A stretch of 39,258 nucleotides of DNA, taken from positions 1 through 39,258 of the IMG/VR virus record IMGVR_UViG_3300045988_163958. One strand, 5' to 3'. The DNA comes from a virus. Position numbers and translations under genes: made by a program. Below, piece by piece: positions 1,328 to 38,490 of this stretch. The stretch's first letter is position 1, and each line of letters begins with the position of its first letter. Below the pieces are notes generated by a model. It saw nothing but the letters and a program-made list of their open reading frames with translations, was not told the DNA's origin and made no database searches.

Positions 1328-2418
1328 ATCAACCCTCTCCCTTCAATCAAATTAACATTATTTAAAATAACAATTTTATCTCTTGGAACTTCTATATTTC
1401 CAGTTGTTTCTCCATTTACACTTAAAGAAGTATAGTCAAGTACTCCATCAACGGATAATATTATAGCTCCAATCTTACCTATACTGACTATTGTAGTTTT
1501 TGAATTGGAAGTATACTGAATAGTATTATTTATTATTCCTTTTTTTATATCTGCTATTACATCTTGTTTTATTGTTTCTATATCATAGCCAGATGCTATT
1601 TTGATTGTTGCTACTATATCAAGAACATATTTTGTATAACTTACTACAGTAACATCTGCTCCAATTGGTCTGCCATCTGCTTGTTCTATTCTGTTTTTAA
1701 CAGCTTCAACAAGTTCTTGATTTGCTACATTATAATCATAATCACTTATAATTACCTTTACAGTTCCTCCACCATTCCATACAGGAATAACATCAACTTT
1801 CCCTACTCCCTCAACTTCTTTAGCCCATTGCTTATAGTCATTTTCGTTTCCACTATGTGCTGGTCTCATTATTTTTTCTTCTGCTCTAGCTATTAAAGAT
1901 TCATTACTTTCAATATCAAATCCACCTGTTATTGCTTCTTCATTTGTAACTGTATATATATTGGTATCTGCTATTTCAAAAGCTACTATATCGCCTATTC
2001 CACAGTTTCCAGTAACACCTCCAACTAAAGCTTGTATTCTGGCTTTAGCTTTATCATCACTTCCTATCAATGCTACAGATAAAGTTTCATATTTTATTCC
2101 TGTTCTACTTAATACTATTGTTCCTTTTGGTATTGTAGTCCCTGTTTTTCCTGTTATAGTTATTTCTCCAGAAGCTTTAACTTCGCTTCTTCTTTTAACT
2201 CCAAATATTAAAGCATGTTTATCAACATATTCATTTTCTGTAGCTGTATCTATAAATGTTTGCTTACTCCACCATTCTAAATAATCATATAAGTCTTTTA
2301 TTTCCAATGACGTTGCTGCTGCTATATCATAATCATATGTTCCCTCAATTTTAGATAAGGGATTTTGCATATTTCCAAGTATATTATTCCTTATTCCGAT
2401 TAAAGTTTTAAAGTCCAA
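1324..2418 (-). CDS. Baseplate J-like protein (XkdT-like).
   Basis: 364 aa, placed in the Xkd P-Q-R-S-T-U series. Size and synteny are typical of baseplate J. Confidence 0.55.
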   Translation of the reverse strand: MDFKTLIGIRNNILGNMQNPLSKIEGTYDYDIAAATSLEIKDLYDYLEWWSKQTFIDTATENEYVDKHALIFGVKRRSEVKASGEITITGKTGTTIPKGTIVLSRTGIKYETLSVALIGSDDKAKARIQALVGGVTGNCGIGDIVAFEIADTNIYTVTNEEAITGGFDIESNESLIARAEEKIMRPAHSGNENDYKQWAKEVEGVGKVDVIPVWNGGGTVKVIISDYDYNVANQELVEAVKNRIEQADGRPIGADVTVVSYTKYVLDIVATIKIASGYDIETIKQDVIADIKKGIINNTIQYTSNSKTTIVSIGKIGAIILSVDGVLDYTSLSVNGETTGNIEVPRDKIVILNNVNLIEGRGLI

Positions 2419-19155: not shown

Positions 19156-19383
19156 TTTCTCATCTCCTTTTTTTATTGAGATGTTGGATAGGCAGTGTAT
19201 ATCCTTACCTATCCATCTTTTATGCAGTTTTTGTTAAAAGTTTGAACTGCTAACAGCGAAAGGTAGTTTGTGTTATCCTAGGCCACTCCTACCAGGTAGA
19301 ATTATTTAAGTTTAAGGACTTCACATATAAAGCTCCTATACCCAGACAGGCGTACTTTACATCTTCACTTATAACCAGTAAAA

Positions 19384-19460
19384 GGGAATAACAGGATTCG
19401 AACCTGTATAATGCTCTCAAGCAATTGTTTTACCTACCTCGTAAGTTAAACTATATTCCC
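19384..19460 (-). tRNA. tRNA-like element. The acceptor stem and T-arm are perfect; the D and anticodon regions are irregular.
   Basis: The minus strand reads GGGAATA...ACAGG-TTCGAAT-CCTGT-TATTCCC. The acceptor stem is 7/7 paired and the T-loop TTCGAAT is consensus. The D and anticodon arms cannot be folded canonically by hand. One option is a TTAC/GTAA stem with loop GAGGTAG. Confidence 0.45.
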
Positions 19461-31423: not shown

Positions 31424-31594
31424 ATGTGGTATCGTGCTGAAGATGTAGCAAAGCTTTGTGAGTGCTCTAAAAGCAAAGCTTACAATATAATAAATTCTCT
31501 AAATAAATTAAAAAGTAAGGAAGGAATACCAGTAATAGCTGGAAAAGTTAATAAAGATTTCTTCCATGAAAAAATGGGCATTAAAAAAAGTTGA
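31424..31594 (+). CDS. xis: Excisionase-like HTH protein.
   Basis: RBS AGGAGG. The HTH is AEDVAKLCECSKSKAYNIINSL. The gene is immediately upstream of int. Confidence 0.5.
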   Translation: MWYRAEDVAKLCECSKSKAYNIINSLNKLKSKEGIPVIAGKVNKDFFHEKMGIKKS

Positions 31595-31605
31595 TTAAAA
31601 ATATA

Positions 31606-31645
31606 AAAGAGGGTAAGATTAAAAAGATCGCCCTCTTTTTTAAGG
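31606..31645 (+). terminator. Hairpin with a T-run between xis and int (attenuator or terminator).
   Basis: AAGAGGG-(17 nt)-CCCTCTT is followed by TTTTTAAGG. Confidence 0.4.
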
Positions 31646-31653
31646 AGGATTTT

Positions 31654-32667
31654 ATGAAAAATGAGAACGGCAGTGGAAGTGTATATAAGTTAAAAGGTAA
31701 AAGGAGGAAACCATGGATAGTGAGAATTACAACTGGCTATAGTTTGGAAGGTAAGCAATTAAGAAAAACTATAGGAACATATAAGACTAAAAGAGAAGGG
31801 CAGGAAGCTTTATTATCTTATTTAAAAACCCCTGACCTTTTTTCAAATAAGACATTTGAAGAAGTTAAAAATATGTGGTGGGAGAGTTACAAAAAAAAGA
31901 ATGAAAAAGAAACAACACTTATAACTTTAAAAAATAGAGTTAAAATATTGGAACCACTTTTTAAAAAAGAAATAGCTGCTATAAAACTTTTTGAATTGCA
32001 AGAAGTATTCGACAATATAAAATTTTCTTGGAATTTTAAAAATGGAGTAAAAAGTGCGTTAAATATGATATTTGATTTTGCTTTAAAAAATGACTTAATA
32101 AGTACAAATAAAGTAAAATTTATTGAATTAGGAAAAAAAGATAGTGTAGTAGAAAGAAAAATATTTACAAAAGAAGAAATAGAAATTTTGTGGGATAACA
32201 CAGATAAAATTTTTTCTTGCTTTGTTCTAATTCTTATTTATACTGGTATGAGGATAGGTGAACTTTTAAATTTAAAAATATCTGATATAAATATAGAAAA
32301 TAAAACTATACAAATAAGAGAAAGTAAAACAGAAAACGGAATAAGAACTATTCCTATAAATTCTAAAATTTTCCCATTAATAACTAAAAATATGAGTATT
32401 TACCAAGAATATTTTTTAGAAAGAGATAAAGAACCTTTAAATTATAAAATGTTTCTACATTCTTTTAAACTATTATTAAAAGAATTAAAAATACAAAGGC
32501 ACACTATCCATGATACAAGACACACATTCGCAACTTTGTTAAATAATTCTAATGCAAACTCAACTTCTATTGTAAAATTAATAGGACACAGTAGCTTTTC
32601 CACAACAGAAAATACTTATACCCACAAAGATACAGAGGAACTAAGAAAAGCTATAGAGAGTATATAA
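31654..32667 (+). CDS. int: Tyrosine integrase.
   Basis: The C-terminal catalytic motifs are HDTRHTFAT and GHSSFSTTENTYTH. RBS AAGGAGG precedes ATG at 31654, which is preferred over the TTG at 31591. Confidence 0.85.
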   Translation: MKNENGSGSVYKLKGKRRKPWIVRITTGYSLEGKQLRKTIGTYKTKREGQEALLSYLKTPDLFSNKTFEEVKNMWWESYKKKNEKETTLITLKNRVKILEPLFKKEIAAIKLFELQEVFDNIKFSWNFKNGVKSALNMIFDFALKNDLISTNKVKFIELGKKDSVVERKIFTKEEIEILWDNTDKIFSCFVLILIYTGMRIGELLNLKISDINIENKTIQIRESKTENGIRTIPINSKIFPLITKNMSIYQEYFLERDKEPLNYKMFLHSFKLLLKELKIQRHTIHDTRHTFATLLNNSNANSTSIVKLIGHSSFSTTENTYTHKDTEELRKAIESI

Positions 32668-35765: not shown

Positions 35766-36017
35766 CTAGTAATTAAATTTTCTTCCTCCGCCTTGAACTG
35801 TTGGCGTTGCTCCTGATCCTACTGGACTACTTGGCTGTATGCTATTAGGGTCTATTCCCCTTTGCTGTAAAATGTTGTTTCTCTGCTCTGGCGTCATTTG
35901 CTGCACCTTTTGCATCATTTCCTGTTGCTGCTGCGGTGTCATTTGCTGCCATTGTTGCATCATCTGTGCTGCTTGTGGCCCTAATGCTTTTTGTAACATC
36001 ATCATCATTGGATTCAT
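35766..36017 (-). CDS. Met/Gln-rich low-complexity protein (83 aa).
   Basis: Strong RBS AAGGAGGT. The sequence begins MNPMMMMLQKALGPQAAQMMQQWQQMTPQQQQEMMQKVQQ. The hairpin AACAC-CCCC-GTGTT follows the gene. Confidence 0.45.
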   Translation of the reverse strand: MNPMMMMLQKALGPQAAQMMQQWQQMTPQQQQEMMQKVQQMTPEQRNNILQQRGIDPNSIQPSSPVGSGATPTVQGGGRKFNY

Positions 36018-36495: not shown

Positions 36496-36822
36496 TTTTT
36501 CTCACCTCAAAGATTTATTTCTGCCATTTTTTCACCTTTGACTTTGATAACTATATTTTATCTTTTATAGCAAAATAAATCTAAAAATATACCTAGATAA
36601 TACCTTATAATATATTTATTTGGTTGTAAAAAATCAACTTTTTATTGACAGAGTAATATAAATGTGTTACCATTAATTAGAAGCACAAACCCATTGGGTT
36701 ACGTTTAATAAGGTTTTAAAAGCTCTGATGATATAAGCACTCACTTGTTGGGTGCTTGTTTCATATATATCAAGAGGTCAGAGCCTTGGTATATAGCAGA
36801 CCTTATTAAATGGAGGTGCTGA

Positions 36823-36906
36823 ATGGATTTTCTAAGAGAATTAGCCTTGCAGGTGCTTGCCGGTATACTAGCTAGTATCATCTGCAAATGGTTAGATAGG
36901 AAATAG
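36823..36906 (+). CDS. 27-aa Ldr/Fst-family type I toxin-like peptide.
   Basis: RBS GGAGGTG. The sequence is MDFLRELALQVLAGILASIICKWLDRK. The tract AGILAS-I...W..RK recalls E. coli LdrD, recalled from memory as ...APVIAGILASMIVNWLNKRK. A 140-nt GC-rich leader precedes the gene and a terminator follows it. Confidence 0.45.
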   Translation: MDFLRELALQVLAGILASIICKWLDRK

Positions 36907-36920
36907 CATCACACCTCGCC

Positions 36921-36946
36921 CAATGGGGCTTTTTTATTTTATAGGT
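36921..36946 (+). terminator. Intrinsic terminator after the toxin-like ORF.
   Basis: GCCC-AATG-GGGC is followed by TTTTTTATTTT. Confidence 0.45.
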
Positions 36947-36950
36947 ATCA

Positions 36951-36975
36951 AAAAAGAGGGATTTAATCCCTCTTT
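36951..36975 (-). terminator. Intrinsic terminator after the RHH gene.
   Basis: AAAAGAGGGATTTAATCCCTCTTTT has a 10-bp stem. The minus strand reads T6 after it. Confidence 0.55.
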
Positions 36976-36976
36976 T

Positions 36977-37201
36977 CTATTTTTCTATGCTTTTTGATAT
37001 AGAGTTTAAAACTTCTACTGCCTGTTCTAATACTCCTTTTTTCCCATTTTTATATTCATCTAAATATCTTCTTAATGCTTCGTTTATTATATAAGTTTGT
37101 GTTAATCCAAAGCTTTCTGAAGTATCTTTTAATCTTTCTAATTCTTCGGCTATTTCTTTGGTAGTATTGAAGCTAATTTTTATATATTCTTTTTGTTTCA
37201 T
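36977..37201 (-). CDS. Ribbon-helix-helix (CopG/Arc-like) DNA-binding protein.
   Basis: The beta strand is KISFNTT and the helices are KEIAEELERL and TQTYIINEALRRYL. Confidence 0.5.
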   Translation of the reverse strand: MKQKEYIKISFNTTKEIAEELERLKDTSESFGLTQTYIINEALRRYLDEYKNGKKGVLEQAVEVLNSISKSIEK

Positions 37202-37563: not shown

Positions 37564-38052
37564 TTATAGTTTTATTCCTGCTTTTATTCCTCCAACTATA
37601 TTATTGTTACCTTTTAAATCTGTTCTTCCTTCTAAGTATCCTTCTACATATCCCTTACTATTTATATCTTGCTCCATTTTCTTTGTAACTCTTAATACAT
37701 CTTGTTGTGCTCCGTTAGTAACTGTTTCAAGAACTTTATTTACAACTGTTAGCTGTTTTTCTTTGCTGCTTTTAAATGTTTCTTGTAGCCCTTCTAGGAC
37801 ATCTTCAATTAAATTTATAATAAAAATTTCTGATATCAGCCAAGAAATATACCATGGAATATTCTTTTTTAATTCTCTTATAGCAAATTGTAATTTTTCT
37901 TTACCTTGTCCAGAGATAAAGTTCTCTTCTGCTTGTACTACAATATAATAAGCTGCTGTTCTAAGCGTTTCTTTTTTGTATTTATAAAGTAAAATAGTAA
38001 TTATTATAATGGCTAAAATTGCAATAAAAACAAATATAGTTTCTCTGTTCAT
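37564..38052 (-). CDS. Putative holin / lysis membrane protein (two hydrophobic segments).
   Basis: The hydrophobic segments are FVFIAILAIIIITILLY and WYISWLISEIFIINLI. The gene is directly downstream of the lysozyme. Confidence 0.4.
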   Translation of the reverse strand: MNRETIFVFIAILAIIIITILLYKYKKETLRTAAYYIVVQAEENFISGQGKEKLQFAIRELKKNIPWYISWLISEIFIINLIEDVLEGLQETFKSSKEKQLTVVNKVLETVTNGAQQDVLRVTKKMEQDINSKGYVEGYLEGRTDLKGNNNIVGGIKAGIKL

Positions 38053-38490
38053 TTAACACTCTCCCTTATAAAGTTCAATTTCTCTTTCTCTTCTTGCTTT
38101 TAAAACTGTTAGTATTTTCCCACCACCTCTATTCCATCTTCTAAACTGTTCTTCTATTTCTCCTATAGGAGCAGAAACATTTATTTTTTTTAATAGAGTA
38201 CTTGTTTCAAATGCTTTAGTTCCTACATTAAAAGCAAAACTAACAAGTGCATCATATTCATTTTGTGTTAGATTTACTTTTACACTTCTATTAACAGAAT
38301 TTTCAAATCTTATAAGATCATTTTTTAAAAATTCTCTCGATTGTTCTTTAGTTATTTTCATTCTAGGCTTAACATCTTTTCCTGTATGTCCTACTCCTAT
38401 TGTTAAAACTCCAGCAGGACATATATATGTTGTCAAAACTTCCCCTTCTTCCTTTATAATAAATTCAATCCCTTTTTCACTTATTTTCAT
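38053..38490 (-). CDS. GH24-family phage lysozyme (endolysin) with no cell-wall-binding domain.
   Basis: GH24 motifs are present: EGEVLTTYICPAGVLTIGVGHTG and NEYDALVSFAFNVG. Confidence 0.8.
   Translation of the reverse strand: MKISEKGIEFIIKEEGEVLTTYICPAGVLTIGVGHTGKDVKPRMKITKEQSREFLKNDLIRFENSVNRSVKVNLTQNEYDALVSFAFNVGTKAFETSTLLKKINVSAPIGEIEEQFRRWNRGGGKILTVLKARREREIELYKGEC

Follow-up and report, generated by a model that had tools for sequence, protein, structure and literature searches.

To our knowledge, almost every type I toxin studied so far has an RNA antitoxin. Some toxin mRNAs are also held silent by folding back on themselves. The hok and aapA1 mRNAs are silenced by their own fold and released by loss of the 3' end (PMC4147584, PMC5416894). 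Ldr and Fst belong to one superfamily, whose homologues were recorded only in Enterobacteria and Firmicutes in a 2010 survey (PMC2887945). Published surveys place type I systems in Proteobacteria, Firmicutes and Tenericutes (PMC12390103; PMC2887945), and our literature search found no paper describing type I systems in Fusobacterium or discussing Fusobacterium Ldr peptides.

Here we analyse a locus within a viral DNA of 39,258 nucleotides (record IMGVR_UViG_3300045988_163958; the whole stretch is called the window), for which an original prediction, made by eye from the letters, had suggested a type I toxin behind a structured leader. We consider it likely that the locus is an accessory 'moron' of a temperate phage, probably of Fusobacterium, encoding an Ldr-homologous 27-aa membrane peptide whose mRNA is silenced by its own fold. 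The Ldr-family label for Fusobacterium peptides is already in database annotation, so the toxin family itself is already named; what is new is the regulatory layout together with the absence of a par-type partner in the lineage of this cassette.

A small Ldr-type gene with its own promoter and terminator

The best promoter match in the region lies on the plus strand and consists of a TTGACA -35 box at 36645-36650, a 17-nt spacer and an extended -10 element, TGtTACCAT, at 36665-36673. The -35 box had been recognized in the original prediction, although at 36646. In all homologues with upstream sequence, a promoter of the form TTGACA/TTTACA-17-TGnTAnnAT occupies the same alignment column and scores 11-14 of 14. 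Transcription is predicted to start at 36680/36681, 7-8 nt downstream of the -10 box. Consistent with this position, homology between cassettes starts at 36672-36682, and the sequence shared with PemK-carrying phages (see below) spans the promoter and stops at 36679, at the predicted start. A leader of 143 nt separates the start from the ATG, and a GGAGG Shine-Dalgarno sequence (SD; 36812-36816) lies 6 nt upstream of the ATG. The predicted transcription unit covers ~260 nt, from 36680 to about 36940, and is 39.8% G+C compared with 29.1% across the window, in keeping with the GC-enriched leader of roughly 140 nt described originally. An intrinsic terminator, also anticipated, was located by a terminator scan at 36918-36929 (GCCCAATGGGGC); its stem is short (4-5 bp) and is followed by a T run to 36942, and homology ends at 36935-36944. 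We refer to the terminator and T run (36918-36942) as the 3' box. Together, these scans and alignments show that the gene has its own strong predicted promoter and terminator.

The open reading frame at 36823-36906 (+) encodes a 27-aa product, MDFLRELALQVLAGILASIICKWLDRK. It is kept in 11 distinct homologues with coding-like variation: variable sites number 5, 4 and 11 at codon positions 1, 2 and 3, and the replacements are all conservative, indicating selection on the ORF as a coding sequence. The proposed layout of a hydrophobic helix followed by W and a basic tail is visible in the sequence: L7-I20 form the hydrophobic stretch, ending C21-K22-W23, and W23 is followed by the tail L24-D25-R26-K27. 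Within the ORF, a palindrome at 36866-36877 (+; TACTAGCTAGTA) is invariant in 11/11 homologues, including three synonymous sites, and forms an ORF-internal hairpin in the consensus fold. The palindrome could alternatively be a protein-binding or dimerisation site.

Formal searches upheld the resemblance to Ldr that the original prediction had pointed out. A Pfam search with the peptide returned a single match, Ldr_toxin (PF13940; E 6.2e-6), whose score of 26.6 bits is 0.4 bits below the curated cutoff of 27.0. BLASTP against E. coli LdrD, taken as the translation of the fetched ldr locus, gave an ungapped alignment to LdrD residues 8-34 with 14/27 identities (52%) and 20/27 positives (E 6e-10). 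A profile built from 30 relatives found LdrD (PDB 5lbj) as its top solved-structure match, at a marginal E of 0.064, and 7/30 members of the wider peptide family match the Ldr_toxin Pfam profile. Two database proteins from Fusobacterium ulcerans and F. varium (WP_106878531.1, WP_117511529.1) are 85-89% identical to the peptide and carry the NCBI name Ldr family toxin; one name among these close relatives reads "small toxic polypeptide LdrD [Fusobacterium ulcerans]". The exact 27-aa peptide is absent from the protein collection searched, and it matches nothing in NCBIfam or PHROGs. Searching plasmids by tblastn recovered Enterococcus plasmids, E. coli/Klebsiella ldr loci and little besides; on the Enterococcus plasmid pE035 the match is an unannotated ICKWLD peptide. 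The likeness to Fst that had been suggested alongside Ldr did not hold up. The Fst_toxin Pfam profile gave no match to the peptide at E <=10, and hhalign of the family profile against an Fst sequence gave a weak match (probability 33%), so the peptide is Ldr-like rather than Fst-like. By homology and by its pattern of variation, the ORF is thus shown to encode a putative Ldr homologue conserved as coding sequence.

The cassette recurs as a unit in unrelated contexts

A metagenome scan together with one viral contig (L043) yielded 15 whole-unit homologues at 75-86% nucleotide identity. Similarity runs in every case from about 36672-36682 to about 36935-36944, and the flanks are unrelated. The neighbours are phage genes in some cases and chromosomal genes, among them a PTS operon, in others, and some chromosomal sites have no phage genes nearby. 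These alignments show a cassette that evidently moves between genomes as one unit. Among viral contigs, the 3'-UTR pattern found L043 only and the strict peptide pattern AGILASIICKW found nothing; INPHARED phages gave no DNA match to the cassette. A leader-hairpin pattern added a single locus, L046, which we rejected as an unrelated terminator. Decayed copies were also encountered. One (L060, 7281-7525, minus strand) has lost its start codon to an 11-nt deletion, and in two others (L068, L077) the C-terminal IICKWLDRK stretch alone remains.

The peptide also belongs to a wider group. A degenerate pattern (SD-ATG-...ICKWLD) retrieved 42 viral contigs; gene calling on 35 of these gave a 27-32 aa peptide with ICKWLD at its C-terminus, and further members occur in Longibaculum, Streptococcus, Ruminococcus, Phascolarctobacterium and other genomes. 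The C-terminal ICKWLD is common to peptides at 36 Firmicutes phage, plasmid and genome loci. In these Firmicutes relatives the leader is 35-58 nt long, the terminator is bidirectional and a convergent promoter lies 74-169 nt past the stop codon, the classic par arrangement. As a separate observation, the viral contigs L004-L044 and genomes L048-L057, from gut Firmicutes and their phages, hold a large and apparently mostly unannotated family of 26-32 aa peptides ending in (Y/I)ICKWLD, encoded at loci of textbook par type. The convergent RNA in L004, for example, has complementarity to the region around the start codon.

The mRNA fold hides the Shine-Dalgarno sequence in silico

The RNA spanning 36680-36940 is predicted to fold at -98.2 kcal/mol (z = -7.5; 0/200 shuffles were equally stable), and minimum free energy (MFE) folding of each sequence on its own gave one architecture in 12/12 sequences. 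A closing helix, H1, pairs 36702-36716 (inverted repeat I7) with 36798-36812, encloses two hairpins, SL2 (36728-36764) and SL3 (36766-36793), and reaches as far as the first G of the SD. H1 is 10-17 bp long in 12/12 sequences and exists in seven distinct sequence versions. When its strands were swapped between lineages, mean pairing energy was -6.3 kcal/mol, against -16.7 kcal/mol for cognate strands, and the cognate partner was best in 9/10 rows. In the consensus structure, sliding the partners lowers the share of paired alignment cells from 95.3% to 36-45%. Both sides have changed in 11 pairs, and 0/500 shuffles match the observed covariation. SL2 (core 36735-36757) is terminator-like with a U-rich 3' side and carries compensatory AU/UA changes, and SL3 has both-side changes in 5/9 pairs. 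Comparison across homologues therefore shows that H1, SL2 and SL3 form a conserved, covarying predicted three-way junction ending at the SD. The long structured leader of the original prediction is borne out by the fold (z = -7.5) and by covariation of its three helices. Of the two leader hairpins named there, AAGCAC...GTGCTT (36735-36757) is real in this sense and covaries, and AGGTC...GACCT is not kept in homologues: AGGTC sits in the SL3 loop, GACCT lies in the closing helix, and the pairing between them is lost.

We found the main candidate for occluding the SD at the other end of the transcript. A 3'-UTR anti-SD at 36910-36917 (CACACCTC) pairs with GAGGUG..UG at 36813-36821, a helix present in the consensus and in 12/12 MFE folds. 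CACCUC (36912-36917) is a near-invariant non-coding sequence in an RNA where 62% of leader columns vary. Since the SD:anti-SD helix is almost invariant, conservation supports the pairing and covariation cannot. In silico, the probability that the SD of the window RNA is unpaired is 0.00 at full length and 0.59 without the 3' UTR; across RNAs, the corresponding ranges are 0.00-0.26 and 0.25-0.64. A second helix appears in the MFE fold of the 3'-truncated RNA, where the 5'-terminal AGCAC (36682-36686) pairs with GUGCU (36816-36820), between the SD and the AUG. This helix is paired in 94.7% of cells and includes 2 compensatory pairs, and 7-9/500 shuffles are as good. The AGCAC of the hairpin at 36735 had been put forward as anti-SD; type-B homologues have AGCTC there, and we discarded it as the main anti-SD in favour of the 3'-UTR element, with the 5'-terminal AGCAC as a second clamp.

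The two ends of the RNA may also meet. A 5' stem-loop at 36688-36700 (AACCCATTGGGTT; the 5' box) forms a local hairpin in the consensus fold and is also complementary to the 3' box. Pairing between the boxes occurs in 12/12 MFE folds and in 84% of cells, with 219/500 shuffles as good, and each box is also able to fold as a local hairpin. Covariation was sought on the alignment and none was found, with strand swaps giving -16.1 versus -14.6 kcal/mol, so we take the end-to-end pairing as a prediction only.

The same regulatory sequence surrounds other peptides. On a Fusobacterium varium plasmid (L083), the leader, SD context, 3' UTR and terminator enclose a different peptide, MYIYVNTLSIHGGIAIAFFIIAWWWYKNK (1608-1697, +). 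A phage contig (L093, reverse complement, 244-339) encodes MINIGTINININGGIAIAFFTLFISYYLIIK, followed by the same anti-SD and terminator. Both peptides are hydrophobic and contain GGIAIAFF, the same SD:3'-UTR pairing is predicted for both, and the three-way-junction leader is present on the plasmid copy as well. Convergent to the plasmid cassette lies an ORF of 35 aa (1740-1847, minus strand; MRFITIFFIFIVVLAVIDTVRRIKIAQIKRDRKRK), hydrophobic with a basic tail and a good SD, which may be a small toxin.

Searching for an antitoxin

By eye, no antisense RNA had been evident at the locus, and this still stands after systematic promoter, terminator and Rfam scans. Across the cassette homologues, leader included, no minus-strand promoter reached at least 9 of 14 at a conserved position. 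The same scan detected the convergent promoter in 18/20 par-type relatives and in 7/9 further loci. It finds nothing on either strand of the E. coli ldr locus and is therefore no control for an Rdl-type gene; consensus promoter scans leave weak promoters possible, and the missing antitoxin may reflect that limit. No minus-strand terminator was found in the cassette region, and no convergent promoter was found downstream of the ORF, where the flank past the T run is unconserved. Rfam antitoxin families, including rdlD, did not match in the cassette, and the E. coli rdlD control scored 83.7 bits. Sub-threshold Rfam matches to sraA, rimP and L20 were set aside as driven by terminators. The cassette contains no par-type direct repeats; its sole direct repeat (TGGAGGTGCT/TGCAGGTGCT, at 36811 and 36848) lies inside the mRNA, is window-specific and has not been kept by homologues. 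These comparisons show that a par-type antitoxin gene is, as far as can be read from the DNA, absent in the cassette lineage.

Other kinds of partner were considered and rejected. A coupled leader ORF of the mok/ldrX type would have to be the TTG ORF at 36745-36822, which abuts the ATG and is without an SD, and whose frame, length and start are unconserved. For a nearby trans-encoded antitoxin, we found no complementary or repeated segment of at least 14 nt in the 39-kb window, and the single 13-mer is at chance level; the flanks of 11 homologous loci gave one overlapping A+T-rich complementary match, 13 nt in all, in L066. The neighbouring RHH gene is excluded as a partner antitoxin because it is present unchanged whether the slot beside it is empty or holds PemK or the Ldr cassette.

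The serious alternative to the self-locking model is a conventional type I pair in which a minus-strand antisense RNA of the Rdl/Sok kind is the real antitoxin and the fold only delays translation. We regard this as possible, though doubtful. Type I toxins normally have such a partner, and in E. coli the rdlD antisense lies in the ldrD 5' UTR, 49-114 nt upstream of the start codon (PMC4147584). Because the cassette is self-contained in unrelated contexts, any antitoxin RNA must lie inside it, and would have to be transcribed from a non-canonical promoter. Two candidates exist. A -10-like GATAAT on the minus strand (36877-36882) is found in 10/11 homologues, and the ORF DNA around it is invariant at three synonymous sites; in the L066 and L079 group, TGtTAAAAT occurs on the minus strand within H1. 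Against this, the GATAAT candidate lacks a -35 box and a TG and is weaker in the window, where it reads GATGAT, and no conserved minus-strand promoter reaches the threshold in homologues whose sense promoter scores 11-14. The success of the scan in par-type relatives, together with the absence of a minus-strand terminator or Rfam antitoxin match, also argues against an antisense partner.

The cassette occupies a cargo slot in a temperate phage

The window is a temperate phage genome with an integrase (31591-32667), an HTH repressor, Rha/ANT, terminase, a portal protein, a holin-like gene (37564-38052) and an endolysin (38053-38490). It also has an Arc-like RHH gene and a small gene matching phage family phrog_462, labelled "lipoprotein". 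We assign the phage probably to Fusobacterium because of the match to the F. varium plasmid, the other cassette matches, low G+C content and NCBI names; the basis is thus base composition, plasmid match and database names, not an integration site. Two further features of the genome were recorded in passing. A tRNA gene at 19383-19460 (minus strand; Rfam tRNA, 41.8 bits) shows, when aligned, an insertion of unusual length in the D-arm region. An 83-aa Gln/Met-rich ORF at 35766-36017 (minus strand; MNPMMMMLQKALGPQAAQMMQQWQQ...) overlaps the 3' end of a 216-aa zinc-ribbon gene in another frame and is not among the genes called on sister contigs.

The cassette and the RHH gene are encoded on opposite strands, and the cassette sits immediately past the RHH terminator. 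That terminator (36952-36976) does belong to the RHH gene, as had been stated, but begins about 10 nt past the T run rather than 5 nt away. Phages encoding an identical RHH protein (L045, L084-L093) differ at this slot. Three of these (L085, L088, L090) have an empty slot: they match 36560-36613 and 36935-37000, with ~27 nt between, and lack 36614-36934 (+), which defines the whole cassette as an insertion relative to these sister phages. The slot holds the same Ldr cassette in L086, L087 and L091, PemK in L045 and L089, PemK with a SocA_Panacea protein in L084, and DUF4429 and other genes in L092 and L093. The PemK gene of L045 (reverse complement, 2447-2565) shares its promoter with the Ldr cassette and has a leader of ~110 nt, with a hairpin and T run (GCACATCAGAAATGATGTGC TTAATTTTTT) directly before its SD. 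No antitoxin gene is called beside PemK in L045 or L089.

The position of the cassette invites a different reading, in which the peptide is a membrane protein that serves the phage itself, for instance in lysis timing or superinfection exclusion, and not the toxin of a toxin-antitoxin module. It adjoins the endolysin and holin-like genes, two family members weakly match a holin Pfam family, and phage release has been connected with a hok/sok locus on a prophage (PMC8621323). We think this improbable. The gene has its own promoter, lies between terminators and runs opposite to the lysis operon; sister phages that have the same lysis genes lack it, PemK toxins can take its place, and it also stands alone in chromosomal sites without phage genes.

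Less probable still, and to our minds quite unlikely, is that the toxin is switched on by its leader, acting either as a riboswitch that senses a ligand or signal or as a transcription attenuator. A closing helix with two hairpins abutting the SD has an aptamer-like topology, and the U-rich tract after SL2, which is a six-U run in type-B homologues, makes early termination possible. However, the helices covary and the loops and junctions differ between type A and type B leaders, whereas known aptamers show the opposite pattern. The cassette also matches no Rfam family, and L093 has the same 3' module behind a short, different leader. Finally, the very strong structure of the RNA, the missing exact peptide and the frequency of short ORFs in A+T-rich DNA might suggest a structured non-coding RNA with an untranslated ORF, but this is very hard to reconcile with third-position variation and conservative replacements only, GGAGG 6 nt upstream of the ATG, a significant Ldr profile match and a large family of 26-32 aa peptides sharing the ICKWLD motif across phyla.

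A proposed mechanism and its significance

The best-supported reading is that the cassette is mobile and self-contained and serves to express an Ldr-family membrane toxin, with silencing in cis by the mRNA fold as the putative mechanism. Beyond structure and homology, we infer the steps as follows. Pairing of the SD with the 3' UTR would keep the full-length mRNA of ~260 nt from being translated. The 5'-terminal AGCAC, paired with the GUGCU between SD and AUG, may act as a second clamp, and the 5' end may dock on the terminator. Once RNA decay or processing had removed the 3' end, the SD would be free, so that the peptide would be made and the membrane damaged. Cells that lose control of the transcript would be killed or arrested, which could serve prophage retention or defence against other phages. 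The interchange with PemK in one slot points to such a role.

More tentatively, and with somewhat less confidence than we give the antisense alternative, the locus might be a one-gene toxin module without a separate antitoxin, its antidote residing in cis: the anti-SD of the 3' UTR, the clamp at the 5' end and the leader with its three-way junction. Such a module would be armed only once RNA decay or processing takes away the 3' end, for example during infection by another phage or after prophage loss. Its regulatory sequence would be a modular chassis that serves both the Ldr type and the GGIAIAFF type, and so at least two unrelated peptides, and would swap with PemK/Panacea modules in one phage slot. 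If true, this would make it the first type I system on record for Fusobacteriota. Fusobacterium is a medically relevant genus, as yet unexplored for systems of this kind. A single toxin family appears to rely on two control layouts, a convergent antisense RNA in Firmicutes and a self-locking mRNA in the cassette lineage, and the cassette provides a natural setting for testing whether an antitoxin RNA is dispensable for restraining a type I toxin.

Comparison with known systems

The closest described system by sequence is Ldr/Rdl of E. coli (PF13940; rdlD, RF01813). The phage peptide shares 52% identity with LdrD over its full 27 aa, including the AGILAS core, the W and the basic tail, and the toxin mRNA likewise has a long 5' UTR (143 nt here, predicted from a conserved promoter). 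It differs in length, with 27 aa against 35 in LdrD, the N-terminal 7 residues of LdrD being missing. The cassette also yields no rdlD-like antisense gene, whereas rdlD is readily detected in the E. coli control, and it is without a conserved upstream ORF like the proposed ldrX. Moreover, the cassette is phage-borne, in a host that is probably a member of Fusobacteriota.

With Fst/par (RNA I-RNA II of Enterococcus pAD1) and the ICKWLD peptides of Firmicutes, the cassette has in common the predicted occlusion of the translation start region by RNA pairing and, with the Firmicutes peptides, the C-terminal ICKWLD. The layouts diverge. Where the par-type relatives combine a short 5' UTR, a bidirectional terminator and a convergent promoter past the stop codon, the cassette has a long leader and a one-way terminator, with no convergent promoter, conserved downstream flank or par-type direct repeats, and its peptide has no Fst_toxin Pfam match.

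In predicted logic, the cassette resembles hok/Sok of plasmid R1 and aapA1/IsoA1 of Helicobacter pylori, in which pairing with the 3' end hides the SD and trimming opens it. The peptides are unrelated, and in the cassette the SD pairs directly with a 3'-UTR anti-SD. It is also without a mok-like leader ORF or an identified Sok- or IsoA1-like antisense RNA, and its 3' processing is predicted. The prophage type I systems hokW/sokW in Sp5 (PMC8621323) and those of Clostridioides difficile (PMC6563280) differ from the cassette in toxin family and in having antisense RNAs that have been mapped, but they too provide a small hydrophobic toxin as an accessory gene of a temperate phage, near the lysis or lysogeny region.
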